A stretch of DNA of 64,000 bases, from positions 1,670-65,669 of IMG/VR virus record IMGVR_UViG_3300044950_000141; one strand, 5' to 3'. Origin of the DNA: a virus. Its lineage: Duplodnaviria > Heunggongvirae > Uroviricota > Caudoviricetes. The notes under the pieces are model-generated. The model did not search any database, was not told where the DNA came from, and saw only the letters and a program-made list of their open reading frames with translations. A program made the translations under genes and the position numbers. This document shows positions 6,452 through 63,824 of this stretch, one piece after another. Numbering within the stretch: the first letter of the stretch is position 1; every line of letters begins with the position of its first letter.

Positions 6452-6461
6452 AATTTTGTTT

Positions 6462-7178: not shown

Positions 7179-7179
7179 A

Positions 7180-9093: not shown

Positions 9094-9153
9094 AACTTAA
9101 GTTAATGAAAAGGCCCCACAATAGTGAGGCCATTTCTTATTTAGAGGGGTATA

Positions 9154-10029: not shown

Positions 10030-10051
10030 TTTTTACTGATTTTATTTGTTA

Positions 10052-10723: not shown

Positions 10724-10728
10724 GTTTT

Positions 10729-12035: not shown

Positions 12036-12210
12036 AACTTATTATTGTTGTTAATGACCAAAATAGATACTCTACATTTAGAGCTACATATGGATCATGT
12101 TTCTGTATGTTATTCATAACAGATACTGTTGGAAATAATACCACTTGCCACCAATGACTCTTTTCATTGGGCAATGTATTATATGCTTTAAAATTTAACT
12201 TCATTATCAT
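11998..12210 (-). CDS. hypothetical small protein (70 aa), overlaps helicase start
   Basis: ORF track only. Confidence 0.3.
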   Translation of the reverse strand: MIMKLNFKAYNTLPNEKSHWWQVVLFPTVSVMNNIQKHDPYVALNVEYLFWSLTTIISYGKKQAHPYATR

Positions 12211-31739: not shown

Positions 31740-32269
31740 TGTTTGATAAACTAATTGATGTATTGATTGAATGGTGGAATCATATTCTACCATTCATCAT
31801 TATCAGAGACTATGAACAAGCTGTACTCCTTAGATTTGGAAAGTTTAATCGAGTGCTATTACCAGGTATACATTTTAAGATACCTTTCTTTGATGAGGCA
31901 ATTGATCAGCATGTAGTAGTTACAACACTTAGTCTTGATGCTCAATCTTTATATACAAAGGATAAGCAAAACATTGTAGTCAAAGGACTTGTCAAATATA
32001 AGATAGCAGATGTTAAGATATTCCTATTAGAAGTCTATGATGCACAGGATGCCCTGTCAGATATGTCTCAAAGTATTATAAAAAATATTATTATGTCTAT
32101 GACCTTAGAAGAATGTACAGATTCTGAACTTGATAATATTTTGACAAAGAAAGTTAGGGTGGAAGCACGCAAGTGGGGAGTTGAAGTTCAACAAGTTACG
32201 CTTACGGATCTTGCTCCAATAAGAAGCTATAGGCTTATAAATGACAATTTTCTTAACAAATTAGATTAG
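31739..32269 (+). CDS. SPFH (stomatin/prohibitin/flotillin/HflKC) domain protein
   Basis: IIIRDYEQAVLLRFGKFNRVLLPGIHFKIPFFDEAIDQHVVVTTLSLDAQSLYTKDKQNIVVKGLVKYKIAD matches the SPFH core (E.AV..RFG....L.PG.HF..P....V...D.R......TKD...V.VD..V.Y.I.D). Confidence 0.6.
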   Translation: MFDKLIDVLIEWWNHILPFIIIRDYEQAVLLRFGKFNRVLLPGIHFKIPFFDEAIDQHVVVTTLSLDAQSLYTKDKQNIVVKGLVKYKIADVKIFLLEVYDAQDALSDMSQSIIKNIIMSMTLEECTDSELDNILTKKVRVEARKWGVEVQQVTLTDLAPIRSYRLINDNFLNKLD

Positions 32270-43014: not shown

Positions 43015-43015
43015 T

Positions 43016-44629
43016 ATGAGTTTTGCAAGTATAGCTGATAATCAATGTGTGTCTTGTAATAATTTACAAGATGCAACTGTTAATCCTCCATTTTATCTAA
43101 TAGCATTTCCTTCTAATCCAATTCCTGTTAGTACAAAACAAATAACTAAACAAGAATTTGAAGATTATATACTTGGTCCTCTTTCTATAACATATCCAAC
43201 TATAGCAGCGTACCCTCCTTTTGCAAATAAAACTACAAATCAACTTGTTGTAAAAAGTGATATATATACTACAGGAACAATAACTATGGAGCCTGCTTAT
43301 GGTATTTATTTTACAAGTTCAACTAATGGGAATCTTGCTGCGTTTTCATATCCTGTAACTACTATTACTACAATTAATTATGATTTTCAAGTATATGCAG
43401 ATAATGGAACTGGATTTGGATTTGAATTACATATAGATGGCACAGTTAGTAGTCCATCTAGTTATGCTCATATTACTATATATTCAAATGATCAAATAGT
43501 AGACCAATCTGATATATTCTTTCCAAGTGGTCCACAATATGTATTATTATCTTTCCCTTATGATATATATGCTCCAAGTGCTATTAGAGTAGTAGTAGAA
43601 GATGGAGGAATTAACAATGGAGTTGTTGATGTAAAATTCCCAATTTCATCAGTAGCTATTAGTAGAACAACAGGACAATATCAAGTGGTAGCTTCAGCAA
43701 AAGCGGGACCTCAATTTCTTGATAATTTACAAGGATATATATATCGTTCTATTGATTATGGTGTTAATTTCCAAAAGGTTGGAGGACAACAATCTACATT
43801 AATTGGATATTGGAGTTCAATTGCTATATCAGATACTGGAGAGTATGTAGTAGCAGGCGAACAATATGGTAAACTTATTTTCTCTAGTGATTATGGTGCT
43901 AGTTTTACAGATATAACAAGCAATATCCCTTCCTGTGATTACCCTAATCCATTAGCTATAAGCAATGTATCTATTTCAGGAGATGGAGAGCATATTATAG
44001 TATGTCTTTTCCCTTCATTATGTAGTGCTAGTACTCCAACATCTAGAAGTTATTTATCCAATGACTTTGGAGCATCATTTTCTCTTGCTATTGATGAAGA
44101 TGAACAAAATGAACAAAATAGTTTTTTTGTTAGTGAGATAAATTCAGATGGCTCTTTAATGGTTATCAGCACTCAAACAGGAATTTCTAAATCTGTTAAT
44201 AATGGTGCTAGTTGGACATCTGTTGTTTTTGGAACACAAGGCATTTCTAAAAGAGGAATATCAATGACATCAAGTGGTGCAGTGATTGGATTAATAGGTG
44301 CAGATATATATACCTCTACTAATTCAGGTAGTAGTTTTTCTACTTTTGTAGCATCGCCTAATCGTGGTATTGCTGTATTTAATGATGGCTCAAATAGATT
44401 TTATACTCTTTATTATAGTGCTAGTACTGTTTATCCAATTTATCAAAGTGGAGCTAGTTTTGCAACGCCACTGACAGCAGTGACAGGACCTGGTAATAAG
44501 CAATGGTGGACTATTTCAGCATCAGATGATGGTCAATACATATTAGCTGGCACATGTAATTATTATAGTAATAATACTAATGAATTGTGGAGGTCTAATA
44601 ATGGTGGCTCTAGTTGGATTAAAATTTAA
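43016..44629 (+). CDS. tail spike/fiber protein with BNR/Asp-box repeats (sialidase-like beta-propeller)
   Basis: Six S-x-D-x-G-x-(S/T)-(F/W) boxes: SIDYGVNF, SSDYGASF, SNDFGASF, SVNNGASW, STNSGSSF, SNNGGSSW. Confidence 0.55.
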   Translation: MSFASIADNQCVSCNNLQDATVNPPFYLIAFPSNPIPVSTKQITKQEFEDYILGPLSITYPTIAAYPPFANKTTNQLVVKSDIYTTGTITMEPAYGIYFTSSTNGNLAAFSYPVTTITTINYDFQVYADNGTGFGFELHIDGTVSSPSSYAHITIYSNDQIVDQSDIFFPSGPQYVLLSFPYDIYAPSAIRVVVEDGGINNGVVDVKFPISSVAISRTTGQYQVVASAKAGPQFLDNLQGYIYRSIDYGVNFQKVGGQQSTLIGYWSSIAISDTGEYVVAGEQYGKLIFSSDYGASFTDITSNIPSCDYPNPLAISNVSISGDGEHIIVCLFPSLCSASTPTSRSYLSNDFGASFSLAIDEDEQNEQNSFFVSEINSDGSLMVISTQTGISKSVNNGASWTSVVFGTQGISKRGISMTSSGAVIGLIGADIYTSTNSGSSFSTFVASPNRGIAVFNDGSNRFYTLYYSASTVYPIYQSGASFATPLTAVTGPGNKQWWTISASDDGQYILAGTCNYYSNNTNELWRSNNGGSSWIKI

Positions 44630-48147: not shown

Positions 48148-49104
48148 ATGGCATATTATTACAAATACAACTTTGTCTCTCCTGAGCCAATCTACTCTAT
48201 TGTTAAAGAAGAATTAAAATCTTATTTTGACACAGGAGCTGTTGATGATTTGATGTTCCCAACTTATTTAGACAAGTGTCTACAAAAGATGGGTAGGTCA
48301 AGTTATGTCATTGCTGAACAAACATTAGATATCTCTGGATATGAAGCTAGACTTCCTGACAACTTCTTTGCTGTTAGAGAAGCTTGGATGTGTACAGAGA
48401 TGCCTCAACGTCCATATCAAACAGCTAACTCATTCTATGCTCAGGCTGCTTCTCAGACCACTATTCAAGTCTCTCCTGTAATTAGTGGTGGAGTTCCTTG
48501 CGTAGAGCCTAATTGTACAACAGGATGTCCTACGTGTATGCCTGATATCATCCAAGCTGTATATAAAACCAATCAACAGGTAGCTAGAGGTATAAGAAAA
48601 GAATATCTATTAAAACCAGGTAATATATCTTGTCAAGGTAAGTGTGATGTAAGTTATACAGATGCTTGGCAATTCTATTCAAGTGCTCCTCCTGTGAAAG
48701 AGTTTACTCCAGGAAGTGCTGGTTATGATAGCTTTGATATTAGAGACAATAAGTTTGTCACTAACTTTAGCTGTGCTATAGTTCACATGATATTTTATGC
48801 TACAGACTATGATGCTATAGGTAATCAATTGATTCCTGATAACTATCGTGTAAGAGAATATATAGAAGCGTTCCTTAAATATAAAGTTTTTGAAACCTTG
48901 TCTAATCAAATTAATGATGAGACATTCAATCAAATACAAGCTAAGTTAGCTTACTATAAGCAACTTTCAGAAGAAGCCTTTATCATGGCTTACATTGAGA
49001 TTAAGAAGCAAGATCCATGGACAAAGCAAAGAAGAGTAAGAAATGACTTACAACGTTTTGCACAATATGAATTACCAAACAGAAGCTCAAGATATGGCAG
49101 ATAA
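48148..49104 (+). CDS. hypothetical Cys-rich tail protein (318 aa)
   Basis: ORF track; CVEPNCTTGCPTCMP. Confidence 0.45.
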   Translation: MAYYYKYNFVSPEPIYSIVKEELKSYFDTGAVDDLMFPTYLDKCLQKMGRSSYVIAEQTLDISGYEARLPDNFFAVREAWMCTEMPQRPYQTANSFYAQAASQTTIQVSPVISGGVPCVEPNCTTGCPTCMPDIIQAVYKTNQQVARGIRKEYLLKPGNISCQGKCDVSYTDAWQFYSSAPPVKEFTPGSAGYDSFDIRDNKFVTNFSCAIVHMIFYATDYDAIGNQLIPDNYRVREYIEAFLKYKVFETLSNQINDETFNQIQAKLAYYKQLSEEAFIMAYIEIKKQDPWTKQRRVRNDLQRFAQYELPNRSSRYGR

Positions 49105-52100
49105 CCAAGAAGGACCATCTAACATAAAACAAGAATTTAATCTTGGAAGAATTGGACTAGATATGGACTCTTCTGTAAATCAAGTACAGAAGGGTAAACT
49201 TTCCTATGCCCTAAACGCAGCATTAGAAAACTTTGATGCTAACTCTGTAAACTATCAAAACGAGCCTGGTAATGAAGCTTGTCTAGAGTTTCCTGAAGGC
49301 TATCATCTTATTGGAACACATTTTATACAAGAGAAAAACAAACACATATTCTTCTTAGCCAATCCTGAAACAGGAGGAAGTGAGATAGGATATATGGAAA
49401 ACAATGATTGTGTATATCGTACATTGTGTACTCCAATCCCTGATACAGACTTAACTGTTTGTGCAAATTCAACTTGTTTGAATTTTAACATTGACTATCC
49501 TATCCATAAAGCTGTACATAAAATTACAAACTGTACTACAGAAGTTTATTGGACAGATGGTCTTAATCCAAGAAGATATATTAACATTGATCAAGTTCCA
49601 TATATCACTGCATATCTTAGTGATCAAAACTGTGATCCACAAATTACTCCTGTTCTTGATTGTAATAAGTTAAAAGTACAACCTAACTTCAGCATTCCTA
49701 GCTTGGACATTATTGATATTGTTGTAGGTGGGGATATCCAAGCTGGTACCTATCAGTTTGCTATTCAATATTGTAATGCTTCAGGTGATGCGTATACGTC
49801 CTACTACTCTATTACTAATCCTACATCAATTGCAAACACAGAAATAACAACTCCTGACTTTCAATATTCTGTAGGAAAATCTATTGTAATAAACATAAAT
49901 AATATAGATATTACAGGATACTTCCAGTATTTTAATATAGCTATTATTAAAACTATAAATGGTGGTACATCTGTAGAACTTATGGGTACTTATAATATCC
50001 AAGATAAAGACAGAACAATCACTTATACAGGTCAAGCTTTAACTAATATTCCTTTAAGTCTTGCTGATATACTTGAGAAGTTTCCTTACTATGAAATTGC
50101 TCAAGACCTTACAAACGTACAAGATGTCATAGTTTGGGACAATCTTACTTCTATTGATAGGATTAACTATCAAAGCATTGCTAGTCAAATTCAACTTCAA
50201 TGGGAGACATATAAGTTACCAGCTAACAATACATATGCTGATGGTTTCTACACTGCTAATCTTAGAGGATATTTAAGAGATGAGGTGTATGCCTTTGAGA
50301 TTGTGTTCTTGTTAGATAATGGTAAACAAACAGATGGTTTCCATATCCCTGGTAGATCAGCACTTTCTACTGATTTAACTCCTGTGTATAATACTAATGC
50401 TGACTTTATTGGAGAAGGAACTGTAGCTCCTTATTGGAAAATATATAATACAGGTAGTGTATTAATTACATATCCTGTTCCTGTAGGAGATGCTGGTAAA
50501 ATAGGAGAAGCCTACCCATATCAATCTGGAGACTTTTCTTATTGGGAATCTACAGATACATATCCTTGTAATGTAGATGTATGGGGAGATCTTGCTGGTG
50601 AACCAATTAGACATCATAAATTTCCTGATGTATTAGTATCTCCTTATTTTGAGACTCCCCCTATTACATATGTTGGAGGTCAAATAGAACCAGTGATGCA
50701 ATCATCTAACGCTATTTATCCAATAGGTGTAAAGATAGATGTACAACAAGTAGGATTTCTTATTCAATCTTCTAGCTTAACAGATGCTGAGAAAGATGCT
50801 ATTGTTGGATTTAAAATAGTTAGAGGTAATAGATCTACAAATAAATCTATTATTGCTAAAGGTATATTAAGAAATGTAGGTAAATATAAAAGAGAAGAAA
50901 CAGAATACTACTATCCTAACTATCCATATAATGATCTTGCTAAAGATCCATTCTTACTTCAGGATAGTAATGCATATATGTCTCAATGTGACACATACAA
51001 AGTTACAGCTACTGTTAATGGTGCTTTACAATATACAAACTGTAATACAGGAGAAGTAACTAGTCTTGACTTTACTACAGCAACCACTGAAGTGTGTTCT
51101 CTTACGCTTCCTGTTGTAAATACTGGTGCTGCTACATTTCAAAATGTTACACCTGAAACTTTTATAATAAGTGTACAAGTACGTCTAGGTTTTCCATCTG
51201 CTACTTTTAGTTATCAAAATCCTGTTACATTAGTTACAGAATTTATAGTTGTAGACAGAAACACTTCAGCAACAGTTAATTCAATTGGTACTCCTGTGTT
51301 TGTATCAGGTTGTGATAAATTTACAATAGTTTCAGGAAGTAGTGTAAACATGAATTGTTTTCCTGAACAACTAGATGGATTTAATAATGCTCAATCTCCA
51401 TATAGACAAGTATTTAATTCACCAGAAACTTCTTTTGGACAACCTACATTAGGATCTGTTCTTAAGCTAGAGAGTGTATTATTTGGAGCTGGTAGAGCTC
51501 ACTTTGTTCAAGTGAAGAAACATTCAATGTATAGACTTCTTACTATACAAGCACAAATAGATGCATTGAACTCTAGTAAAAAGATTGCTGATCTAGGTGG
51601 ATTTAGTGCCACAGCAATGTTTACAGCATACCAAACTTATTTACAGATATATGTAAATGGTGCTACTAGAAGAAACTTTGCATATTCTTTTAACTCTATA
51701 TCTAGCTATGACTATAATGCAGATATTCAAAACAATCAAGGAATTAAACAAAGGGAGCTTGATAGATATCAATACGTATTCCCTGGTGTACAGAATGTAG
51801 GAGATGATCTTGATCTTAATAACTGGAACAGAGAATCATCTGTTTACATTAAAAGTATTGAAAATAGAAATGGTGCATTTGTAGCACCTTTACCATACCC
51901 TAACCAAACCAACTCTCTTGTCGTAGCAGGAACAAGTCAAATTAGTGATAACTCAAGATTTACACTTTCACAAAGAGGACATTGTGGAACTCCTGAGTTT
52001 CAAGAACCTATAAAGGTTGTTTCATATTATGGTTCTATAAAGACAATTAACAATGGTCAATGGGGACAGATATATTCATATCAAACTATTGATACAGGAT

Positions 52101-53794
52101 TCCAAAGAATATTTGCAGCATTGCCTGCTAATGATTCTGAGGTAGTATTTGGTGGAGATACATTTATTGGTAAGTTTGGATTTAAAACTAAACTACCATT
52201 CTTTATTGATAATAGAGTGGGAGCTCCAGATGATTCTGATATATTTTATGATGAGATAGGTAATGTAGCATACCCACAATATTGGTATTCTGCTAGATCT
52301 GTATTGTATGACTATTATGTAGGTGGTACTTTGATGAAGAATATTATATCAGTAAAAGCTCATTATCTAGACTGTCCTAATGATACTAAAGTAGATGATC
52401 CTAATACTACTACCACTACAAGTTCTACAACACCTGCTCCAGGTACTACACAACTTGGTAACCAAAACTATGTATATGATGGTAAGATGTATACATTTGC
52501 TTATGGTGTTCCTTACTACTATGTAGAAACTTCTATCAATATAGACTTACGTCAAGCCTTTAATAACTTAGAAGGTGACTTCTACCCACACGTGAGCTCA
52601 GGTATCCCTGATACTTGGTTCCAAGAATCAGTGGTGCCTATTACATTTGATAATACATACTATTATAATACAACATTCTCTAAGCAAAATACAGAGAACT
52701 TTTTCTCTCATTTGCCTTCAGATTGGAAACAACAATTATGTTATACATACTTTCCATTCAGAGCAATATACTCTGATAGACAAGAAAGTTATTCTGATAA
52801 CAGAATAAATAGCTGGTTGATATATCGTCCAATAAGTTTCTTTGACTTCCCTCAAAACTATGGCAATCTAATATCTTTAGATGGTATTCAAAATAGAGCT
52901 ACATTAGCTAGATTTGAGAACAAGACATTGTTATATGGTAACATGTTAACAATGGATACAAGCAATCCTCAAGCAGCTTATTTAGGTAATCCTTCATTGT
53001 TTAGTAGTATTAATCCACCTCCTGTAGATTATGCTGAAACAGATCTTGGATATGTAGGATCTCAGAATAAGTTTTTACTTAAGATACCTCAAGGACAAAT
53101 AACTGTAGATGCTAAGAGAGGTCAGATATTCTTAATAACTGGTACCCAAGCAACTGACATATCTGGATATGGTTCTGGTCTTAACAGATTCTTTACAGAC
53201 CATTTGTCATTTGAGATATTGAGATACTATCCTACTGTTGATATAGATAATCATTTTAAAAACATTGGTCTTCATGGTGTGTATGATAGTAAGTATGATA
53301 GAGTGATTATTACTAAGTTAGACTATATCCCTCAACCAGATAAGAACATATTCTATGATGAGTTGACTAAAGAGTTTTATATAAATCAACCTGTAGCTGG
53401 AAACACTTCAGTTAAAAGGTATGTTGAAATAACAGATTTAAACTATTTCTGTAATAAATCATGGACAGTATCCTTTAACTTCAATACTAAGAGTTGGGTG
53501 AGCTTTCATACTTACATACCTAACTTCTATATAGGAGAAAACAACTTCTTCTATTCAGGATTAAATGAAGGTTGTGATATCACAGCAGTGGCTGTAACAG
53601 AGATTCCTTCTCCTACCACTACAACCACAACAACAGTAATATACTACTGTAACTTATCTGGTACAGCAGTGGTAACAGATTCTCCTTGTATATTACAAGG
53701 AACAGCAGCTTGTACAGATTGTACAACTACTACAACAACTACTAGTAGTACAACTAGTACCACTAGTACAACAACTACTTTAACACCACCTTGA
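49043..53794 (+). CDS. very large virion/tail protein (1583 aa; likely true start ATG 49094 MADNQEGPSN) with poly-Thr linkers
   Basis: ORF track. Poly-T segments PNTTTTTSSTTPAPGTT and C-terminal TTTTTTVIYY...CTTTTTTTSSTTSTTSTTTTLTPP. Size class of tail hub/muzzle-type proteins. Confidence 0.6.
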   Translation: MTYNVLHNMNYQTEAQDMADNQEGPSNIKQEFNLGRIGLDMDSSVNQVQKGKLSYALNAALENFDANSVNYQNEPGNEACLEFPEGYHLIGTHFIQEKNKHIFFLANPETGGSEIGYMENNDCVYRTLCTPIPDTDLTVCANSTCLNFNIDYPIHKAVHKITNCTTEVYWTDGLNPRRYINIDQVPYITAYLSDQNCDPQITPVLDCNKLKVQPNFSIPSLDIIDIVVGGDIQAGTYQFAIQYCNASGDAYTSYYSITNPTSIANTEITTPDFQYSVGKSIVININNIDITGYFQYFNIAIIKTINGGTSVELMGTYNIQDKDRTITYTGQALTNIPLSLADILEKFPYYEIAQDLTNVQDVIVWDNLTSIDRINYQSIASQIQLQWETYKLPANNTYADGFYTANLRGYLRDEVYAFEIVFLLDNGKQTDGFHIPGRSALSTDLTPVYNTNADFIGEGTVAPYWKIYNTGSVLITYPVPVGDAGKIGEAYPYQSGDFSYWESTDTYPCNVDVWGDLAGEPIRHHKFPDVLVSPYFETPPITYVGGQIEPVMQSSNAIYPIGVKIDVQQVGFLIQSSSLTDAEKDAIVGFKIVRGNRSTNKSIIAKGILRNVGKYKREETEYYYPNYPYNDLAKDPFLLQDSNAYMSQCDTYKVTATVNGALQYTNCNTGEVTSLDFTTATTEVCSLTLPVVNTGAATFQNVTPETFIISVQVRLGFPSATFSYQNPVTLVTEFIVVDRNTSATVNSIGTPVFVSGCDKFTIVSGSSVNMNCFPEQLDGFNNAQSPYRQVFNSPETSFGQPTLGSVLKLESVLFGAGRAHFVQVKKHSMYRLLTIQAQIDALNSSKKIADLGGFSATAMFTAYQTYLQIYVNGATRRNFAYSFNSISSYDYNADIQNNQGIKQRELDRYQYVFPGVQNVGDDLDLNNWNRESSVYIKSIENRNGAFVAPLPYPNQTNSLVVAGTSQISDNSRFTLSQRGHCGTPEFQEPIKVVSYYGSIKTINNGQWGQIYSYQTIDTGFQRIFAALPANDSEVVFGGDTFIGKFGFKTKLPFFIDNRVGAPDDSDIFYDEIGNVAYPQYWYSARSVLYDYYVGGTLMKNIISVKAHYLDCPNDTKVDDPNTTTTTSSTTPAPGTTQLGNQNYVYDGKMYTFAYGVPYYYVETSINIDLRQAFNNLEGDFYPHVSSGIPDTWFQESVVPITFDNTYYYNTTFSKQNTENFFSHLPSDWKQQLCYTYFPFRAIYSDRQESYSDNRINSWLIYRPISFFDFPQNYGNLISLDGIQNRATLARFENKTLLYGNMLTMDTSNPQAAYLGNPSLFSSINPPPVDYAETDLGYVGSQNKFLLKIPQGQITVDAKRGQIFLITGTQATDISGYGSGLNRFFTDHLSFEILRYYPTVDIDNHFKNIGLHGVYDSKYDRVIITKLDYIPQPDKNIFYDELTKEFYINQPVAGNTSVKRYVEITDLNYFCNKSWTVSFNFNTKSWVSFHTYIPNFYIGENNFFYSGLNEGCDITAVAVTEIPSPTTTTTTTVIYYCNLSGTAVVTDSPCILQGTAACTDCTTTTTTTSSTTSTTSTTTTLTPP

Positions 53795-53828
53795 TAATGT
53801 ATATTAGTTAAAAACAATATGTAAAAGA

Positions 53829-54695
53829 ATGTCTAAAACAGTAATAATAAGATTAACATGCTCAGGTGGCAGAACAGGACCCTTTGATATCACTGATAAC
53901 TTAGGGACAGTCTTGGGCACTGACATTACTAAGCAAAATCTAATTGATGGGTATACTGTCAGTGTAGATGATGCTGTTACTAAGATTATTATAACATCTG
54001 TGGGTAAGTGTCATACAGTTTTAGAAGTTACAATTGGTACTGCTACTATAGAAGACCTTGCTGCATTAAGATACAATGTATGTAATACAGCGTCTATGTG
54101 GAGACACTTAACAAGCGTAGTGCACTATAACAAATACTATGATAATGTAGAACCTTATATCATTGAGTATCCATTCTCTTATCAGAGCTATGATGAGATA
54201 CTTCAGAATGTAAAAGACTATAGTAAGGTATATAACTACCTACCTATTCTAGATGGTGTGTTTAATGACAATGCTCAGATAGCTGTTGATAATCAATGGT
54301 TTAACAAAGCTGTATTATACAATAGCCAACAGTCCACAGGTATGTTAGAGTTAGTACCTAAGCCAATGCATAACTTAAGACAATACTTAACCTACCCAAT
54401 CTATAATACTGAAAGCAAAACTATCACTTATACTAAGTCAGATAATTTCTATCAATATAATACTTTCTGGGGGTTAGTTAAAAATAAAGCATTACCTTTG
54501 TTTACAACAAGTTGTGAGTCTTTATCAATAGATAAGGTTGTAAATCAAGTGAATATGGATTATGGAAAAAGATCATTTAAGAAAGAACCATTAAGAGCTA
54601 AAGACTTAAAGGTTAGACATATCCTTGATAACAGTTCTATAGCTCACATTGTTTCTCAATTCATTATTACACCTGCTCAAATCTCTTATAAGTAA
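53829..54695 (+). CDS. hypothetical virion protein (288 aa)
   Basis: ORF track. Confidence 0.45.
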   Translation: MSKTVIIRLTCSGGRTGPFDITDNLGTVLGTDITKQNLIDGYTVSVDDAVTKIIITSVGKCHTVLEVTIGTATIEDLAALRYNVCNTASMWRHLTSVVHYNKYYDNVEPYIIEYPFSYQSYDEILQNVKDYSKVYNYLPILDGVFNDNAQIAVDNQWFNKAVLYNSQQSTGMLELVPKPMHNLRQYLTYPIYNTESKTITYTKSDNFYQYNTFWGLVKNKALPLFTTSCESLSIDKVVNQVNMDYGKRSFKKEPLRAKDLKVRHILDNSSIAHIVSQFIITPAQISYK

Positions 54696-57600
54696 TGGCA
54701 AACTGGTTAGACAAATATGAACAAGGAGGAATGGTCTTAAAGAAAAAGACTAAGGATAACTATGGGAAGAGACCTAACCCTAATGATGTCCAAGCATCTG
54801 TAGGTCCTGACTTTGTAGGTCTTGGATATAATACCAAGGGTAGAGACTACTCTCCTGCATGGGGTGGACAGTTTCAGGATGGTGGTAAGTTGACTCTTCC
54901 TGAAGCAATTGTATATGGACATAAAGATCCTAGTACTAAAGCTTATTTTGATAAAGTTAGAACAGATGCAGAAAAATGGCAAGATGAATATTATTGGAAT
55001 ACCCCAACAGCTGGTTATAATGCATTAGAACAAATGCATAGTAAATATGGAGCTCCTAAAATAAATACAATTAGAGAAAAGGATACAGCTTGGTATAACC
55101 CTATCACTGATTCTATGAATATTTCTATTCCAAAATATGGTGATGAATATGGTAACCCAGTAGAAGATCTATTTTTACATGAATTAGCTCATAAAGTTCA
55201 AGCAAATAAAAAAGGAAATGTAGGTTTTGTAAAAGATTTTGTTGGTAAAGATTTAATAAATACTTTAAAGAATGTAGATTCAAGTGATATGTTTACTAAA
55301 AAGGGATGGTTAGATGCATACGGAAAAAATTATAATACTCCAGGCACTGTAGAAAATGAAGCACATTCAGTTATTGCACCTAAATTAGAAGAGGAATATA
55401 GAGATATACGTAGTAAACAATATGATAGACTTTATGGTGATATGGCTATGGGTGGTGCACTACCAGGTGCTGTAGGATTTACATACGCACGTACACAAGA
55501 CCCTGCTCCTGATAATGGTAAGTATGCTAAGAAGACAAAAGCAAGTGCTCAGAATGGCTCTGTAATCAAAGATGATAGAGGTCAGTTAGCATACCCAGGT
55601 GAGATAACAGAGATAGGTTCTAATGACATCACTATGCAGGGAGTTGACTATCCTGTACTTGGTGTATCTGATACAGGTGATACACAGATGATGTATCCTG
55701 ATCAAGATTATAAGTTTGATGGTGAGAAGGTTACAGAATTTCCTATGGCTCAAAATGGAAGAAATATTCCTACAACAGCAGATAGTACTCGTTTATATAA
55801 TTCCCAAATGGCTCTTAATAAGTTTTATGAAAATGAAATGAAAGCTGGTAGGCTTAAGATGAATAATATAGCAACTATTTTTGATTTTAATAATTATAGT
55901 GGATTAGATAAGGATTTAAGAAAAGAAAACTTAGATTTTTATCGTAATCAAATACTACGTAGATCAAATAAATTATATACATTTGATGATTTATATAAAA
56001 AGATTTTTAATCTATCCCCTGAACAAGTTAGTAAACTAGAAAATAAAGGTCTTGGTCAAACTAAAGGTAGTTCTGAATATCAAGATTATTATAGAGATCT
56101 TATAACTCCAATGCAAAACTTAGCGTCTCCATTTGCATTAATTGATAAACGTATAGCTCCACAAAGAAGGATTTCTTATAGTCCTAAAAGTTCAGATTAT
56201 CCAGGAGGAGAGGTATCAGTGTATGACTATGATCCTATATTAATAAAACCAGTGAATATGCTTACTCCAGAGGAGAGAGCACTTAGAATTAAAAAATATG
56301 GAAAAGATAGTGGCATAAAAGAAACAGTTTCAAAACCTATACAGAAACCAGTTTCAAAGCCTATACCAAAATCTGAACCAAAATCTGAACCAGCTCCAGT
56401 AGTTGCACAACAAGCTACTCCTGAAAAACCAACTCATCAACCAAAATCTTTATATGAATATGAAGGAGAGCAAGTTATGGCTCCTGTTCCTAGTGGTGGT
56501 GGTGCTGCAATGGTGGGAGTTAGAAAGAAAGATGGTACAATAGAATATATTAAACCAGAGGATTACCAAAGAATGAGTGTTCCTAAATATGGTCAAGACT
56601 ATATTAAGAGCAAACAAAAAATGCAAGGTGGTGGTTGGTTAGATAAGTATCCTGAACCAATGCGTCAAGATGCTACAAGAGTAGCTCCTCCTGTATTAAA
56701 ACTTACAGACGAAGAGAAGTTAGCAAACGTAGCAAAGTCTGACCAAGCTCAGAAGAGAGCATTGAATACTGCTAAAGAAGTTATATCAGAAAGACAAAAG
56801 AACAAAGCTACAAAAGGAGATTTAAACACTCCTGGATCTTGGAAGGTAGAAGAGAAAGCTAGATTGTTTCCTAGTAGTGTAGGCGGAGTTGGTGAAATGG
56901 TTGATGAGTATATTAACCCAGCTACATATGTAGGTGTCTTAGCAGATGCTCTAGGAGAATCAGTTGCAGCAAGAGACCCAAAAGGTATTGCTACATCATT
57001 AGGACTTTCTGCTATAGGAGGTGGATTAGGACTTGATCCTCTTGGTGGTGGTATTAAAGCTGTTAAAACTTTGACTAAACAATTACCAAATGCAGCTAAA
57101 TATACTTTAGGTAGTATGTACAAAACTTATAATGAAAATATATATCCTATTTTAAATAAAGAAAAACTAGCACCTTATGCTGATAAAATAGCTAAGCTAA
57201 ATGAAATGAATGCTGCTACAAAAGAGTCTTTAAAATCAGGAGAGTTAAGAAAAAGATTAATTAATCAAGGACTAACTGAAGAAGAAGTTTCAAATATGAA
57301 AGTTCCTAATTTAGCTTTCTTTGCAGATAATAAAAGTCCTGGAACCTCTTATAGCAGATATCAAGATGCTAATAAGTCACTTAAACTAGAGGGAATTAAT
57401 ATTAATTTTGACCAATTAAATCGTTTAAAAGATAATGGCATTTCACTAGAAGCAGCTTATGAACATGAAGTAGGACATTTTTTACAAAGACCTTTAGCTG
57501 ATAAAAACCCTTTAAATGATTTAAACAAATATAATGAGTTATTAAAAAATTATAAAAAAGATGTAAGAATTTATAAAAAAGAAGGTAAGAACTTATCTAA

Positions 57601-58102
57601 TACATTTGGGCTTGATAAAAATAAAATAAGTAAAGGAGATGAGAGAGAGAGAATGCGTTTTTTATCAAGAGCCATGAAAGAAAAGGACGAAGCAGCAGTG
57701 AATTGGTTTGATAGAAAACCTCAACTTCCTGAAAGACCTAACTATGAAGCAGAACTAGATAAAAAAGTACGTGACTTAAATTTTGATAATGAAAATAGTT
57801 TTTTAAATTATTTTAACAAAAATCATGAAGCATATCCTTTCTTAAGAGAAATGAGACAAACTATGGTAGATGAAGGATTTATAAAAGATAAGTATCAAGA
57901 TATAAATAAAGATGCTATTTCCAATTTTTTAAATAGCAAAACAAAAAATAGATTAAAAGAAACACTTAGTCGTAAAGAAAAAGAGAGTAATACTGATATG
58001 TTACATACTCTTTTAAAAACTCTTCCAGCAGTAGCACCAGCAGTTATTGCATCTCAATCACAAGAAAAGAAAAATGGTGGCTGGTTAAACAAATATAAAT
58101 AA
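54695..58102 (+). CDS. large virion protein with two zincin HExxH motifs and four copies of a GWL(D/N)(K/A)Y motif (putative tandem metallopeptidase / cargo polyprotein)
   Basis: HELAH at 55178..55192 and HEVGH at 57464..57478. NWLDKY at 54701..54718, GWLDAY at 55304..55321, GGGWLDKY at 56627..56650 and NGGWLNKYK at 58073..58099 (C-terminus). Confidence 0.6.
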   Translation: MANWLDKYEQGGMVLKKKTKDNYGKRPNPNDVQASVGPDFVGLGYNTKGRDYSPAWGGQFQDGGKLTLPEAIVYGHKDPSTKAYFDKVRTDAEKWQDEYYWNTPTAGYNALEQMHSKYGAPKINTIREKDTAWYNPITDSMNISIPKYGDEYGNPVEDLFLHELAHKVQANKKGNVGFVKDFVGKDLINTLKNVDSSDMFTKKGWLDAYGKNYNTPGTVENEAHSVIAPKLEEEYRDIRSKQYDRLYGDMAMGGALPGAVGFTYARTQDPAPDNGKYAKKTKASAQNGSVIKDDRGQLAYPGEITEIGSNDITMQGVDYPVLGVSDTGDTQMMYPDQDYKFDGEKVTEFPMAQNGRNIPTTADSTRLYNSQMALNKFYENEMKAGRLKMNNIATIFDFNNYSGLDKDLRKENLDFYRNQILRRSNKLYTFDDLYKKIFNLSPEQVSKLENKGLGQTKGSSEYQDYYRDLITPMQNLASPFALIDKRIAPQRRISYSPKSSDYPGGEVSVYDYDPILIKPVNMLTPEERALRIKKYGKDSGIKETVSKPIQKPVSKPIPKSEPKSEPAPVVAQQATPEKPTHQPKSLYEYEGEQVMAPVPSGGGAAMVGVRKKDGTIEYIKPEDYQRMSVPKYGQDYIKSKQKMQGGGWLDKYPEPMRQDATRVAPPVLKLTDEEKLANVAKSDQAQKRALNTAKEVISERQKNKATKGDLNTPGSWKVEEKARLFPSSVGGVGEMVDEYINPATYVGVLADALGESVAARDPKGIATSLGLSAIGGGLGLDPLGGGIKAVKTLTKQLPNAAKYTLGSMYKTYNENIYPILNKEKLAPYADKIAKLNEMNAATKESLKSGELRKRLINQGLTEEEVSNMKVPNLAFFADNKSPGTSYSRYQDANKSLKLEGININFDQLNRLKDNGISLEAAYEHEVGHFLQRPLADKNPLNDLNKYNELLKNYKKDVRIYKKEGKNLSNTFGLDKNKISKGDERERMRFLSRAMKEKDEAAVNWFDRKPQLPERPNYEAELDKKVRDLNFDNENSFLNYFNKNHEAYPFLREMRQTMVDEGFIKDKYQDINKDAISNFLNSKTKNRLKETLSRKEKESNTDMLHTLLKTLPAVAPAVIASQSQEKKNGGWLNKYK

Positions 58103-58122: not shown

Positions 58123-61053
58123 ATGAAAGACCAAATATTAAAGATTGCTAAAGTAAAGTCTGAGAAGGAGTTCTACAAGAAGTATCCATCAGAGGAAGCA
58201 TTTATGAAAGCTCATGGTAAAGCATTTAAGAAAGCTGCTATGGGTAGTAAGATGGTCAATGACCAGTTACATCAGTTAACTGATTTTGGCAATCCTCCTA
58301 TTGCTCAGAAGGGAGCACAAACACCTAAGTTTGAATTTAATAAATTTGGTGCCACTGCAGACAATCCTCAAGGAAGTTTTAGTTCTGGAGCTGGACAAGC
58401 TGGTATGGCTGGTCTTCAAAACTTAGATAAGATTGCTGGTGGTATTGAAGCAATTGGTGCACAGAAGAAAGCTATTAAAAAAGCTGATCAAAGTGCTCAA
58501 TTGTCAGGACTTTCTTTACAAGCTCAACAAACAATGAAACCACCTAAGAATCAATATGTTAGACCAGAAGATGCTTTGGTACAACCAGGACAATTAGGTA
58601 ATCCTTATGGAACTGGTACAAACTATTTAGGTGCTAAAAATGGTACAATGATTGGTGGCAATCCTACAGAGATTCAAAATACATATGCTCCTACAGGAGA
58701 TATATATAATGATCTTGGATATGAACCAATGGAAGAAGCATACAAACAATACAGACGTGGTGGTAATATGCCTAAAGCAGAGTTTGGAGAATACTTCCAA
58801 GACTCAGGTCAAGCACAAATTGGTAGTGCTGTAGGAGAATCTATTGGTTCTGCCTTTGGTCCAGCAGGTGCTGCTGTTGGTAAGTTCTTAGGTAAGGTTG
58901 GAGGTAACTTATTAGGTGGTGCTAAAGATGCTAGAAACTTACAAGCACAAAAAGATAAAACTGCTTTGGCTCAAAGCCAAATGGGATTTGAACAAGCTAG
59001 ATCACAAGGTCCTCTTAATGCTAATCTAGAACATGGTGGATGGGTGAGTCATGACTGGCAGCCACAAGTGTTTGCTAAGTTTGGTGAGTATGATGCTAAA
59101 GATCTTTTGAAACCTCCACATGATGCAGACATGTTAAGAGCTGGTGGACACATTGCACAAGTGGGCTATACAGCTCCTAGTGCAGAAGCATTATACACTG
59201 GTAGAAAAGACATGCCTAAAGCTTTTGTAGGACTAGCTATGGCAGCTCCACTGATGGCAGCAAATATGGCTACTGGATATGTTATAGATAAGTTTGGTAG
59301 AACTCGTTTAAAAAATGCATTAGAAAAAACTCCTCAATTACTTGGAGCTATGGGAGGTATGGAAGATGGTGGAAAGATGGCACTAGGTGGAGAGTTACAA
59401 ATAGGAGATGGTGGATACGCAGAGACATTATCGTACAATCCTAACTTACCTGGTGGTGAGATAGGAATGTTCAGAGGAGCATCACATGACAATGGTGGCA
59501 TACAAACTCAGTATGGTGAGAATGGTGTAGAGGTAGAAGGTGGTGAACCATTTACTGTTCTAGAAGACAATGGCTCAGAAGATGGCAATAACCTAGAAGG
59601 TGGTGGATCTAAAGAGAACCTTGTTGTGTTTGGTAACATGAAAATTAATAAAAACATAGCAGATCTTATGGGAGATCCAAAAGCAAAGGGTAAGAAGTTT
59701 AAAACTTACATAGCTGATGTAGCTAAGAATGATGCAAAGCAATTAAAGAGAATCAACAAAGGTCTTGAGTTGATTCAAAGTGCAGATGAGAACAGTGCAT
59801 TTGATCATTTGCAATTAAACACAGGACAGGCAAATTTAATGGGAGGAAAAGCTTGGCAAGAGATCAATGCTGAGAAGATTAAGCAAGCAGGTATTGTACA
59901 AGATTCTATTCACAAAACAGCTAGACAACTAGGTGCTAAGAGTGATAAATTAGCTGAGGGCAAGATAGAGAAAGAAACAGATCCAAGGATGATTGCTCAA
60001 GGTGGTACAAAGATGGGGAGATATCAGGAATATACAAATGATCTAGAAGATTATGATGTAGAAGAGATACTTCCTGCTTCAGAAAATATAAATGCCTTAA
60101 GTGACATTGCTCCTAGTATTGAAGACATGCCAGGAGATCCTTCACCAAAGAAGAGCAGTAAGTTACTAAATGCATTAAAGTCAACAGGTAATTTTTTAGG
60201 AAAAGGATTTGAGAAATATGGTAATACTGCTTTATCTAACTTAGAAAACTTTTTAAGACCTAGTAATGCTAATGAAGACTTACCTCCAGACCAGTTGTAT
60301 CCTGAATACTTTGCATTGGCTAACAATCAGTTAGATCCAGTGAGAGCTCAGAAATTCCAACCAATGTTAGAAACTCCATATAACATTTCTTTGAATGATC
60401 AATTGAATGCTATTGATTCTCAATCTAGAGCAATCATGAGACAAGTTGGTAATAACCCTGGTGTATTAGCAAACATTGCAGGTCAAACATTAGAAGCTAA
60501 GAATAGGGTGCTAGGAGAAACAAACAGAATTAACCAAGCAAACGCTATGGGAGCTTATGATAGAAATAGAAATAAGTTAGATGATGCTCAAAAATTAAAC
60601 TTACAAATTCTTGACAATCAATATGTTAGACAAGCACAAGCTAAATCTAATACCAAAGCTCAAACCCAAGCTGCTTTAAGTTCTATAGCTGCTAAGACTG
60701 CACAACAAAGAGCTACTAATAGAAAGCTAGCTATTATGGAGAACATGTATGGATTCAGATTCTCTCCAAGTGGCAGAGCTATTAATATGAATGCTCCTGC
60801 TCAATTTGATACATCAGGTATGAATGCAAGAAGGTCTGGACTTTCAAGTGCAGGTTTACCAACTAACAAGAGATTTACAATAGACTCTGTAACAGGAGAA
60901 CCTGTTGGAATCAGAACATTAACTAAAGAAGAAATGGCAGGTAGTAGTTCTTCTCTATCAGAAATAGACAACTTCTTAGACAAGAATGGTGGTAAGACAC
61001 CAAAGACAAAAGCTAGAAATAGTTCAATTGTCAAAGCTCTAAAAAACCTCTAA
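58123..61053 (+). CDS. large Gly/Ala-rich virion protein (976 aa), candidate ejected/cargo protein
   Basis: ORF track; low-complexity G/A/Q-rich. Confidence 0.5.
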   Translation: MKDQILKIAKVKSEKEFYKKYPSEEAFMKAHGKAFKKAAMGSKMVNDQLHQLTDFGNPPIAQKGAQTPKFEFNKFGATADNPQGSFSSGAGQAGMAGLQNLDKIAGGIEAIGAQKKAIKKADQSAQLSGLSLQAQQTMKPPKNQYVRPEDALVQPGQLGNPYGTGTNYLGAKNGTMIGGNPTEIQNTYAPTGDIYNDLGYEPMEEAYKQYRRGGNMPKAEFGEYFQDSGQAQIGSAVGESIGSAFGPAGAAVGKFLGKVGGNLLGGAKDARNLQAQKDKTALAQSQMGFEQARSQGPLNANLEHGGWVSHDWQPQVFAKFGEYDAKDLLKPPHDADMLRAGGHIAQVGYTAPSAEALYTGRKDMPKAFVGLAMAAPLMAANMATGYVIDKFGRTRLKNALEKTPQLLGAMGGMEDGGKMALGGELQIGDGGYAETLSYNPNLPGGEIGMFRGASHDNGGIQTQYGENGVEVEGGEPFTVLEDNGSEDGNNLEGGGSKENLVVFGNMKINKNIADLMGDPKAKGKKFKTYIADVAKNDAKQLKRINKGLELIQSADENSAFDHLQLNTGQANLMGGKAWQEINAEKIKQAGIVQDSIHKTARQLGAKSDKLAEGKIEKETDPRMIAQGGTKMGRYQEYTNDLEDYDVEEILPASENINALSDIAPSIEDMPGDPSPKKSSKLLNALKSTGNFLGKGFEKYGNTALSNLENFLRPSNANEDLPPDQLYPEYFALANNQLDPVRAQKFQPMLETPYNISLNDQLNAIDSQSRAIMRQVGNNPGVLANIAGQTLEAKNRVLGETNRINQANAMGAYDRNRNKLDDAQKLNLQILDNQYVRQAQAKSNTKAQTQAALSSIAAKTAQQRATNRKLAIMENMYGFRFSPSGRAINMNAPAQFDTSGMNARRSGLSSAGLPTNKRFTIDSVTGEPVGIRTLTKEEMAGSSSSLSEIDNFLDKNGGKTPKTKARNSSIVKALKNL

Positions 61054-61139
61054 CTATTTCAGTTAGAGTAAATTAACAAAAATCATTATCGCTCTTGGTA
61101 GATCCAAATTTTTAAATTACATTTGCTAACATTATTATT

Positions 61140-63824
61140 ATGGCATCCTTTACAGATCAAATATCACAGTTTAACCCCTACATCCAGGAACTCCCAGTTG
61201 AGGCCATGGTGCAAGTTGGCATGGCCAAACAGGCCCAATATGACCAAGGTGTACGAAAAGTTCAGAGCTATATTGATAGAGTATCTGGTCTAGAAATAGC
61301 TAAGCCTCAACATAAGCAGTATCTTGAGTCAAAGATGAATGAGCTTGGTAACAGATTAAAGACTGTAGCTGCTGGAGATTTCTCTAATCAACAATTAGTT
61401 AATTCTGTTGCTGGTATGACAGGTCAGGTTGCTAAAGATCCCATAGTTCAAAATGCTGTATATTCTACAAGTGTTATTAAGAAAGGGTATTCAGAAATAG
61501 AAGCTGCTAGAAAGGCAGGTAAGTCAGGTAAAGACAATGAAGATTTTTATGAATCTAATGTAAATAACTGGATGACTGATCAAGATTTAAAAACTCCTTT
61601 CAAAGGAAGATATACACCCTATACAGATGTAGATAAGAAGCTTAGAGGATTGGTAGAAGAACTTAAGAAAAACCCTTCATCATCAAGTATTGATCAACCT
61701 TTTGTAAGAAATGATAAAGGAGAAACACTTTACTTTAAGGATGCTAAAGATAACATAGGTTCTACAGATCCTTCACAAGGAGAAAAAAGAACTGATCTTG
61801 ATATGCTTAAGATCAAAGTAAAAGGAACACCTGCTCAACAGATATATGATACCTTTGTTGATAACTTAACTAGCAACGATATAGAACAGTTAAAAATTAC
61901 TAGTTGGGCTAAGTTTAAAGGAGCAAACACTAAAACTTTTCAAGATTCTATACTAGATACATATAAGTTAAAAAAGGATATGCTAAATGAACAGATTACT
62001 AATTTAGCTGTTGAGTTACAAAATCCTAAATTAACAAGTGCACAAAAGTCTCAAGGAAATGCAATTCTTAAGAACTTGACAGACATGTATGATGGTGGAG
62101 TTCTTGATAAAAAAATGAATGAAGAACTTTCTACTCTTGATAAAAAGATTAATGAGCAAGGATTAGATACAGTTAAATATGATGTTTATGTAGATAATCA
62201 TTTCAGTCGTCTTGCTAAAGATTTATCTTTCAAAACATATGAAGAAGAAAGGGTAGCTAACCCTGCATCTCAAGCACTATTAGCTAGACAAAAGTTTCAA
62301 TTAGATCAACTTCAGTTTCAAGATGAAAGTAAGTATCGTGCTTTAAATTACGCTACAACAAGAGAGAGACTTGCATGGGAAAAATTAGTAAAAGCACAAG
62401 AGCTTGCACCTACTAATTTACTAGATGTAACTGAAGGAACAATTGGTACAGGTAAAAACATTCCTACAGTGGGAAGCGAAAGAAAAGACTTAGTAGATGT
62501 ATTATCACAAAAGTCTGAGTTAGATAGCAAATGGGCTAAATATATATTTCCTGATTTAAAAGAGGCTAATCAATATACAACTGCTCTTGGGGGATTGTTA
62601 AATGATTATAGGAAGAATCCTCAAATGAATCTGACTGCTAATCAAAAAGCATATATAAGAGAAGCTGAAGCATTGGATAATGCAGCTCAGTCAAAAATAA
62701 ATGCAATAAGCTATGCAGAGAAGAAAGGATTAGATAAAGCTATTGATAAAACAGCAAATGCTCTTGGTACTAATGATGTTGTAATTAATGGAAAAACGTT
62801 TACATCAAAAGAACTAGCAGACGTTGCTGTTAGAATGGCTGAATATAAAAAAGAGGGAATTCCAAGTTATACATCAGCTGCTACATCAGAATATGGTGTA
62901 CCAGGTCGTCCTGGTATTCCTGCTACTTTTGATGTGAGAGGAGCAACTGATTTCTTTTCAAATTATCAAGGTGGTAAATACTATTCAATAGTAGCTCCTC
63001 TTTTAAAAAGACAAACAGGAAAAGCTTTAACTGCTAGTGAAACAGATGCTTTAAATAAATTTAATACAGCATCAGATATAGTTAAACGTGAAACAGGAAA
63101 TATACCTAAGTATGAATCTGAAGCTTTGGTAGGTATAAGTCCAAGTACTGTTTCACAAAAGGCAACTTTAACTCCTGATCTTGTAAAAGGTGATGAATTA
63201 TCTATTGATAAATTCTTGACCAAAGCTATAGGTAGATACAATGCTCTTGAACAAAAACCAAATTGGAATGCTGATAATATAGCTAAGCTATGGAACACTC
63301 GTAAAAGTGGTGCTGAAGGAGGTGCAAAAGTTGGTTGGGAGCTTGAGAAGTTTAGAGATGGTACTGCACAAATAATAGTATCACAAGGAACCACTGTAGA
63401 AATAATTCCTGTACTTCCTGAAGATTTACGTAACTACTTCCCACAAGCAACACAAGTGAGTCCATTTAATCAAATAAGAGATTTAATATATACATCTCCT
63501 ACTAAGACAACAAACTTAGCAGGTGCAACAGATGATAATCCTACTAATGCAGTGAATGCTAGATACTCAGGATATGATCTTCCTCAATTAGAAAAAGCTA
63601 AAGATGCTCCTTTATTTAGATATGATATTATTGGAAGTCCAAATAATACAGGAAGATCAGAGACAGATCAATTTTTATTTGTTGGATATGTAAAAGATCC
63701 TAAAACAGATGGTTGGAAAAGAAAAGAGTTAAGTGATGGATATCAGGGAGAAGGAAAGATGTTACAAATAATGAGTCTTTGGAATAAAGATAATATAACA
63801 GAAGCACAAAAAACTTGGAAATAA
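61140..63824 (+). CDS. large virion protein (894 aa), candidate ejected/cargo protein
   Basis: ORF track. Confidence 0.5.
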   Translation: MASFTDQISQFNPYIQELPVEAMVQVGMAKQAQYDQGVRKVQSYIDRVSGLEIAKPQHKQYLESKMNELGNRLKTVAAGDFSNQQLVNSVAGMTGQVAKDPIVQNAVYSTSVIKKGYSEIEAARKAGKSGKDNEDFYESNVNNWMTDQDLKTPFKGRYTPYTDVDKKLRGLVEELKKNPSSSSIDQPFVRNDKGETLYFKDAKDNIGSTDPSQGEKRTDLDMLKIKVKGTPAQQIYDTFVDNLTSNDIEQLKITSWAKFKGANTKTFQDSILDTYKLKKDMLNEQITNLAVELQNPKLTSAQKSQGNAILKNLTDMYDGGVLDKKMNEELSTLDKKINEQGLDTVKYDVYVDNHFSRLAKDLSFKTYEEERVANPASQALLARQKFQLDQLQFQDESKYRALNYATTRERLAWEKLVKAQELAPTNLLDVTEGTIGTGKNIPTVGSERKDLVDVLSQKSELDSKWAKYIFPDLKEANQYTTALGGLLNDYRKNPQMNLTANQKAYIREAEALDNAAQSKINAISYAEKKGLDKAIDKTANALGTNDVVINGKTFTSKELADVAVRMAEYKKEGIPSYTSAATSEYGVPGRPGIPATFDVRGATDFFSNYQGGKYYSIVAPLLKRQTGKALTASETDALNKFNTASDIVKRETGNIPKYESEALVGISPSTVSQKATLTPDLVKGDELSIDKFLTKAIGRYNALEQKPNWNADNIAKLWNTRKSGAEGGAKVGWELEKFRDGTAQIIVSQGTTVEIIPVLPEDLRNYFPQATQVSPFNQIRDLIYTSPTKTTNLAGATDDNPTNAVNARYSGYDLPQLEKAKDAPLFRYDIIGSPNNTGRSETDQFLFVGYVKDPKTDGWKRKELSDGYQGEGKMLQIMSLWNKDNITEAQKTWK

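Follow-up and report, generated by a model that had tools for sequence, protein, structure and literature searches.

Short terminal peptides direct unrelated proteins into the virion in the case of the capsid targeting sequence (CTS) of the T4 internal proteins and of the P1 Dar proteins, and polymorphic toxin systems (CdiA with VENN, Rhs with PxxxxDPxGL) were reportedly set out by Zhang et al. in Biol Direct in 2012. Closer in kind are the polyvalent phage proteins, which are rich in zincin-like metallopeptidase (MPTase) modules, their commonest domain (Iyer, Burroughs, Anand, de Souza, Aravind 2017, J Bacteriol; PMC5512222), and the cargo proteins C1 (gp45) and C2 (gp46) of Bacteroides phage crAss001 (Bayfield et al. 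2023, Nature; PMC10172136). Here we compare with these systems an open reading frame (ORF) of 1135 amino acids (aa) at positions 54695 to 58102 (+) of IMG/VR virus record IMGVR_UViG_3300044950_000141, numbered within the 64,000-nucleotide (nt) stretch of that record that was analyzed, hereafter the window. On balance, we consider this ORF to be a mosaic polyvalent cargo/effector protein that an uncultured crAss-like phage ejects, with modules, two of them zincin-like, punctuated by the motif G-G-W-L-(D/N)-K-Y. That the protein is packaged and ejected at all seems highly probable.

With the polymorphic toxins the ORF shares a constant part, a short demarcating motif, and variable effector modules swapped by recombination at the motif. 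It differs from them in lying in a phage virion module rather than a secretion system and in having no N-terminal secretion or trafficking domain. There is also no immunity gene downstream of it, the next gene being a conserved cargo-like ORF, and its motif, of which two to four copies are possible, also caps both termini. The T4 and P1 signals are N-terminal only, and cleaved off in T4, whereas the motif of this ORF is found at both ends and at the joints, and on only one protein of the phage.

Like the polyvalent proteins, the ORF is a large phage protein that combines unrelated effector domains (at least two diverse domains, by which that class is recognized), with a zincin-like MPTase, sometimes more than one per chain, and its relatives carry ART-PolyVal and lytic domains; delivery together with the DNA would be common to both. 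In contrast, no conserved delimiting or terminal motif was found in the text of PMC5512222 as searched, neither zincin module of the ORF matches Pfam, including PF18818 MPTase-PolyVal, and the family of the ORF occupies one fixed slot, with a single-beta-domain scaffold and motif-bounded cassettes. The crAss001 cargo proteins resemble it in their position directly after the muzzle gene, in being mostly disordered or unresolved and held by short segments, and in the crAss_CARG1 domain, which is found in relatives of the second zincin-like module. However, they have not been reported as modular or punctuated by a motif, and the 976-aa ORF directly downstream is the better counterpart of C1, if only weakly so.

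A literature search on the motif and on polyvalent or effector cargo of crAss-like phages gave nothing relevant; we did not find described a single punctuation and terminal motif, a scaffold with one beta domain, or cassette insertion and deletion at such a motif. An earlier reading of the window from its sequence alone (the sequence-only reading) had not recognized the architecture as a described family. This stands as far as family models go, with no match in Pfam, PHROG, or NCBIfam for the ORF or its separate modules, and no current model covers either zincin-like family or the single-copy beta domain; it does not stand for the general kind of protein, polyvalent proteins having been described (PMC5512222).

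Motif copies and module boundaries

The start codon of the ORF (ATG) and the stop codon of the gene before it overlap in TAATG. The sequence-only reading had reported four copies of the motif, and W-L-[DN]-[KA]-Y was indeed found at aa 4, 205, 648, and 1130, in the contexts MANWLDKYEQGG, KKGWLDAYG, QGGGWLDKYPE, and NGGWLNKYK-stop, respectively. The four copies use 4 of the 10 tryptophans of the protein, and no further one occurs elsewhere in the six frames of the window. This is far above expectation, since chance would give 0.0017 copies and at least two copies were seen in 0 of 20,000 composition-matched shuffles. Also confirmed were one HExxH signature per segment of the protein (HELAH at aa 162 and HEVGH at aa 924) and a Pro/Lys-rich linker (VSKPIQKPVSKPIPKSEPKSEPAP, aa 545-568). 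The copy at aa 205, which had been counted with the rest, stands apart from the other three and marks no boundary, because it has no preceding Gly-Gly, lies within a predicted helix inside module 1, and becomes WIDAY, WKDAY, or WKSAY in homologues.

A homologue search of 5.8 billion proteins returned 1,479 matches of 633 to 1,787 aa, covering just 8 to 70% of the query. The motif counts rest on the best 120 of these 1,479. The N-terminal form, M-A-[NK]-W-L-D-K-Y-E-Q-G-G, starts 91 of the 120 proteins, and the C-terminal form, G-G-W-L-[ND]-K-Y-[KN]-stop, closes 108, always ending exactly one residue past the Tyr. Internal copies of G-G-W-L-[DSN]-K-[YF] number 121. Across about 150 homologues the motif takes the same three places, namely the N terminus, the module junctions, and the final residues. 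The three Gly-flanked or terminal copies of the query are thus real module boundaries, conserved in homologues. When the 120 proteins were cut at the motif, 218 segments were obtained, which fell into 64 module families and 60 architectures. Each locus had exactly one motif-bearing ORF.

Some family members open with a leader of 39 to 50 residues in which a Cys-rich, zinc-ribbon-like pattern occurs (MANNINCTCGHS...), with the first GGWL then at about aa 40 (L012, L019, L020, L021, L024, L030, L034, and L040; P0029, P0032, and P0131). More distant crAss-like loci from IMG/VR (L037-L053) encode proteins of 600 to 2507 aa in the equivalent slot, with the beta domain at the N terminus and no GGWL motif. 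They end instead in approximately L-[TS]-x-x-E-I-x-x-[YL]-x-x-x-G-Y-x-[IV]-E-x-[IL]-stop, a pattern also found internally in P0148 and P0167, which suggests that terminal "address" motifs may be lineage specific across crAss-like phages. In a comparison for a motif-specific virion receptor gene, the motif-less loci were distant from the motif-bearing ones in every gene.

Mosaic anatomy of the ORF

Mapping the homologues (n = 119) onto the query separated a scaffold (aa 1-66, aa 241-355, and aa 644-795) from optional cassettes (aa 94-240 in ca. 25/119, aa 356-540 in 39/119, and aa 800-1125 in 4-5/119). The features are listed below, with predicted local distance difference test (pLDDT) values where available.

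54695 to 58102 (+): whole ORF, putative mosaic polyvalent cargo/effector protein; identical protein on 10 metagenome contigs
54695 to 54892 (+): N-terminal unit, aa 1-66, predicted disordered; in ca. 94-105/119 homologues, pLDDT ca. 30
54704 to 54718 (+): motif copy 1, aa 4-8, within the N-terminal unit
54929 to 55447 (+): cassette 1, aa 79-251, predicted zincin/MPTase-like fold
55178 to 55192 (+): HELAH, aa 162-166, in cassette 1
55307 to 55321 (+): pseudo-motif KKGWLDAY, aa 205-209, in cassette 1
in cassette 1 (+): conserved E-x-E-A-H, aa 220-224
55448 to 55564 (+): MGGxxPGxxGFxYARxxxxAPxNGxYxKKTxASAxxG, aa 252-290, predicted disordered; near-invariant columns, pLDDT ca. 26
55565 to 55759 (+): small beta domain, aa 291-355, family defining; in ca. 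117/119 homologues, six short predicted strands, pLDDT 60-70
55760 to 56314 (+): cassette 2, aa 356-540, predicted alpha/beta module, function not assigned; pLDDT 75-89
56315 to 56626 (+): Pro/Lys-rich disordered linker, aa 541-590, then predicted beta hairpin and helix, aa 591-644
56627 to 56650 (+): junction motif G-G-G-W-L-D-K-Y, aa 645-652, in the junction stretch KMQGGGWLDKYPEPM; left recombination joint
56651 to 58096 (+): C-terminal half, a 1,446-nt cassette absent from contig L055
56651 to 57079 (+): post-junction helical segment (predicted), aa 653-795; in ca. 80/119 homologues, Gly/Ala-rich, moderately hydrophobic at aa 765-787
57152 to 58039 (+): cassette 3, aa 820-1115, putative zincin-like metallopeptidase module; ends in hydrophobic LPAVAPAVIA
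57464 to 57478 (+): HEVGH, aa 924-928, in cassette 3
57827 to 57850 (+): invariant E1045 and E1052, in cassette 3
58076 to 58102 (+): C-terminal motif G-G-W-L-N-K-Y-K and stop codon

The beta domain is present in exactly one copy in 158 of 200 proteins, and in 90 of these 158 the motif follows within the next 2 to 6 aa. At locus L056 it directly abuts the junction motif, cassette 2 being absent, and query aa 352-642 therefore represent a further cassette; at L008 the two pieces occur in reversed order, with cassette 2 preceding the beta domain. The slot of the ORF is hypervariable within an otherwise conserved virion module, because at L008, L017, and L042 the neighboring genes are 93 to 98% identical while this gene differs in both length and content.

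Low-confidence, predicted disordered regions (pLDDT of ca. 25-45) comprise aa 1-74, the near-invariant aa 252-290, and the motif copies. Segments that are strongly conserved yet lack a predicted fold typically bind a partner, and in crAss001 only short segments of C1 are ordered, where portal, ring proteins, and muzzle hold them (PMC10172136). A transmembrane helix was considered for the query and rejected, the highest Kyte-Doolittle means being only 1.2 to 1.3.

Two faint similarities involve the beta domain. The stretch at aa 264-316 (window positions 55484-55640), comprising KKTKASAQNG and the start of the beta domain, gave a nonsignificant profile match (E value, 0.47) to the N-terminal part of ribosomal protein bL27, with the shared pattern KKxxxSxxNG...RG-x-x-x-HPGE. 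In Cellulophaga phage phi17:2, gp041 (L054, NC_021798), annotated as a virion structural protein, showed a weak N-terminal match to the domain (E value, 7e-3), with a C1-like central and C-terminal part, and may be the nearest cultured handle on it.

Cassette exchange and selection at the motif

One case of exchange is contig L055, which encodes a protein of 650 aa (P0008) corresponding to the N-terminal half alone and ending in ...GGGWLNKYK-stop. By blastn, identity between this contig and the window is 98% as far as nt 55786; a second match, at 86%, reaches nt 56650, the last base of the junction motif, and the match resumes at nt 58060. Base by base, 42/45 nt are identical to the left of the junction motif and 44/45 to the right of the C-terminal motif, with the crossover inside GGTGG(T/C)TGGTTA, within the two motif-coding repeats. 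The 1,446-nt C-terminal half has therefore been inserted or deleted between two direct repeats that encode the motif, and cassettes of this gene are gained and lost by recombination between such repeats.

Internal copies of the motif use several synonymous Gly and Leu codons, with Asp and Tyr codons close to background frequencies. Because they vary synonymously in this way, the codon data show selection acting on the motif peptide. Only in C-terminal copies does the unusual codon GGC precede the Trp, and these copies have a conserved 3' block in common with the intergenic region; a DNA-level explanation for the bias was considered and ruled out on this ground.

Two zincin-like modules of different families

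An exhaustive phmmer scan of 1.84 billion representatives recovered 81 relatives of module 2, the zincin-like module of cassette 3. In their alignment H924, E925, and H928 are invariant (67/67), Q931 is present in 65/67, and E1045 and E1052 in 78/78. The HExxH lies in a predicted helix at aa 918-935 and E1052 in another at aa 1046-1060; E1045 and E1052 are both candidates for the third metal ligand. The AlphaFold2 model of aa 640-1135 has a mean pLDDT of 74, with 75 to 95 over most of module 2; besides other helices and a three-stranded sheet, it contains the HExxH helix and, farther along the chain, one that bears E1052. We take module 2 to belong to an undescribed zincin-like family, probably a catalytic one. 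It could be a working metallopeptidase of the gluzincin type, which would act on host proteins after ejection or in processing.

For module 1, in cassette 1, the model of aa 1-660 (mean pLDDT of 63) has the same topology around HELAH as module 2. E163, H166, and E-x-x-A-H (aa 220-224) are conserved, and residue 162 is variable among 22 homologues (H in 7, N in 6, D in 4, S in 3, Q in 1, and E in 1). The fold thus appears zincin-like, and canonical catalysis across the family is doubtful. Of the two zincin modules proposed by the sequence-only reading, both HExxH regions are modeled with a zincin-like core fold, but module 1 is not canonical, having H at residue 162 in only 7 of the 22.

The best structural matches of both modules are the C-terminal metalloprotease domain of ArdC and the minimal zincins (projannalysin, selecase, Wss1, SprT/Spartan, and IrrE), which share with them a compact three-strand core, the HExxH helix, and a later Glu-bearing helix. 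Unlike these, module 1 has no conserved first His, and the conserved Glu residues of module 2 lie about 120 residues past HExxH, with a long helical insert. Searches of PDB sequences with phmmer and profiles gave nothing significant for the ORF or its modules, nor did Foldseek against the PDB with the model of the C-terminal half.

Genomic setting and link to virion cargo

The window has a GC content of 34.6%, and its virion genes identify the source as a crAss-like phage, with Pfam matches to a P22-like portal, Crass_capsid (the Crassvirus major capsid protein), ring protein 1, ring protein 2, and crAss_MUZ. The genes flanking the ORF are the following.

49043 to 54695 (+): muzzle protein (1583 aa) and 288-aa protein, upstream (PF25731 crAss_MUZ, 7e-36; phrog_15100)
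58123 to 63824 (+): 976-aa candidate C1 counterpart and 894-aa protein, downstream (synteny; weak likeness to gp45)

The 288-aa ORF (53829-54695, +) matches only positions 1588-1781 of the 1783 of phrog_15100, the same PHROG matched by the N terminus of the muzzle protein, and looks like a split-off C-terminal piece of the muzzle. After the 894-aa protein, a giant of 4129 aa is encoded beyond the window. On every independent contig read, the gene order was the same: ring 2, a 158-aa protein, ring 1, muzzle, the 288-aa protein, the ORF, proteins of ca. 1000 and ca. 880 aa, and a giant of 3,700 to 4,270 aa; at every locus read, the next gene downstream was a conserved cargo-like ORF of 976 to 1250 aa. 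In crAss001 the muzzle gene (gp44) is likewise followed by cargo gp45 and gp46 and then by giant RNA-polymerase-associated proteins (PMC10172136). The only match to the ORF in reference bacterial genomes was on a contig binned with a Sediminibacterium metagenome-assembled genome (MAG), and a further relative lies on a Cytophagia MAG contig. The host probably belongs to Bacteroidota.

The domains recognized in relatives are those of an effector repertoire: ART-PolyVal, ADPrib_exo_Tox, Amidase_2, Amidase_6, PG_binding_1, His_Phos_1, and YkuD, the last an L,D-transpeptidase module. PF25725 crAss_CARG1 was found in 2 of 26 scanned module 2 relatives, and P0156 and P0182 match the portal-binding part of crAss001 gp45 (E value, 1e-13). 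P0086 (1,787 aa), a metagenome protein, is a natural fusion of a homologue of aa 66-647 (40% identity) with a homologue of the downstream 976-aa ORF (38% identity; E value, 2e-123), and carries no motif at all. The 976-aa ORF itself (58123-61053, +) has a weak collinear likeness to gp45, with an E value of 6e-4 in the N-terminal region, a Gly/Ala-rich stretch, and GASHDNGG versus GGSHEENP in gp45; it has no match to Pfam crAss_CARG1, nor does the ORF match PF25725 crAss_CARG1 at E values of up to 1. The synteny and the domains in relatives fit the virion cargo role that the sequence-only reading had suggested.

In gp45 (L001, 1988-4516) we also observed FGGWLNTQGG at aa 426-435, at the start of the portal-bound domain (aa 425-552), and GGWLGG directly after a Gly/Ala-rich predicted membrane helix. 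These stretches are possibly a distant echo of the motif.

Elsewhere in the window, the gene that immediately follows the portal gene (31739-32269, +) codes for a protein with an SPFH/Band 7 domain (PF01145, 2e-27). Positions 40564-44629 (+) encode an 816-aa protein with seven collagen triple-helix repeat stretches (PF01391, 6e-59), followed by a 537-aa protein with a Sortilin/Vps10-type repeat. The two probably serve as fibers or bind receptors, and the collagen repeat has probably given rise, as by-products, to the ORFs listed on both strands within 41450-42736. A minus-strand block for replication and nucleotide functions (1954-13268) includes GHKL-ATPase-like, uracil-DNA glycosylase (UDG) superfamily, DUF932, superfamily 2 (SF2) helicase, and DnaB-like helicase proteins.

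A proposed mosaic cargo protein and its alternatives

In the reading that we favor, a constant scaffold is formed by the disordered N-terminal unit, the disordered MGG...KKTKASAQNG segment, the single beta domain, and the post-junction helical segment. On it sit interchangeable cassettes, here two unrelated zincin-like modules and one alpha/beta module, with G-G-W-L-(D/N)-K-Y as a punctuation mark that follows the start codon, joins cassettes, and closes the protein. By analogy with the T4 and P1 signals, we tentatively suggest docking as the role of the motif: flanked by Gly, it would be a short linear peptide that attaches to a virion component or to the neighboring cargo protein. Such a peptide would fasten the protein at its ends and joints, so that it is packaged and is ejected in order.

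Several observations weigh against this picture. No relative of the ORF was found among 50,697 deposited phage genomes by DNA and protein searches, and no cultured or deposited phage thus encodes the protein. Direct homology to the crAss001 cargo was sought and rejected, with BLASTP against gp45 no better than an E value of 1.5 and none detectable to gp46. The AlphaFold2 models of both halves show no motif copy docked onto a domain of the same chain. The remaining proteins of this phage that are presumed to be cargo lack the motif, which therefore cannot be a general packaging signal or tag. Finally, the argument from a motif-less fusion rests on a single protein, P0086.

The main rival to docking is that the motif is a proteolytic processing site, the polyprotein being cut at GGWLDKY, for example after the Gly-Gly, whether by the zincin module that it carries or by a different protease of phage or host, which would free the modules in the capsid or in the host cell. 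We regard this as unlikely, though it has points in its favor. The motif stands exactly at module junctions, in a flexible, Gly-rich, low-pLDDT context, and the demarcating motifs of Rhs-type polymorphic toxins are also cleavage sites. MPTase domains of polyvalent proteins have been proposed to free their neighbors by autoproteolysis (Iyer et al. 2017; PMC5512222). However, any HExxH occurs in only 30 of the 120 closest members, so cleavage in cis cannot be general, and no protease was recognized among the ORFs of the window. Moreover, copies 3 residues from the N terminus or 1 from the C terminus are retained by more than 90% of members, among them proteins with no internal junction copy, and cleavage at these terminal copies would take off just 1 to 6 residues.

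It is improbable that the motif is kept mainly as a recombination linker at the DNA level, with a peptide that has no function. The crossover of the insertion or deletion within motif-coding repeats, the mosaic breakpoints at conserved elements, and the high combinatorial diversity are all what such a linker would produce. Yet internal copies vary synonymously at about background and share just 12 to 15 nt, the amino acid pattern is kept with its substitutions (D/N/S and Y/F), and the spacing to the termini is fixed; longer conserved flanks would suit recombination better.

Equally improbable, in our view, is that the protein is not packaged cargo at all but an external tail- or fiber-associated enzyme, or a nonvirion protein in a structural block. 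The cell wall hydrolase modules of relatives could act from outside the tail too, and the lack of similarity to crAss001 C1 or C2 is compatible with this. Against it stand the position between the muzzle and the cargo and giant genes, as for gp45-gp50 of crAss001 (PMC10172136), the fusion of relatives to crAss_CARG1 or to the downstream cargo-like protein, the ADP-ribosyltransferase and phosphatase modules of relatives, which act inside the cytoplasm, and the largely disordered state predicted for the conserved regions.

The tandem duplication of one motif-bounded metallopeptidase module proposed by the sequence-only reading is scarcely credible, although a single chain carries a pair of HExxH signatures and a pair of zincin-like folds. 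The sequences refute it: in the pairwise alignment of the halves that had been called for, made with blastp (aa 1-650 against aa 645-1135), only the motif matched (E value, 0.2 or worse), the modules are unrelated cassettes of different families that differ in their conserved residues and in the spacing to downstream acidic or His residues, and the halves assort independently, occurring alone (P0008) or with other partners, as in P0007 (806 aa), which has the C-terminal half (87% identical) behind a different, shorter N-terminal part.

Implications for crAss-like phages

The selection, loading, and ejection of protein cargo by crAss-like phages are poorly understood, and only small cargo fragments were resolved in the crAss001 structure. 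A hypervariable gene with a seven-residue boundary motif, demonstrable gain and loss of cassettes, and varied enzymes in relatives would give a handle on cargo addressing. If the motif were sufficient for packaging, it would also be a tool for loading foreign proteins into virions. The modules of relatives, which include toxins, cell wall enzymes, and proteases, would bear on the arms race of injected phage effectors. We also raise, as a speculative possibility, that GGWL(D/N)KY may be, in this lineage, a "plug-in code." It would be at once a protein signal (for docking into the virion or onto the C1-like cargo, or for processing) that gets cassettes packaged and ejected, and a recombination joint through which effector cassettes of any kind could enter, leave, or be strung together within one virion-cargo gene. 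If so, this family would be a phage-borne counterpart of polymorphic toxin systems.

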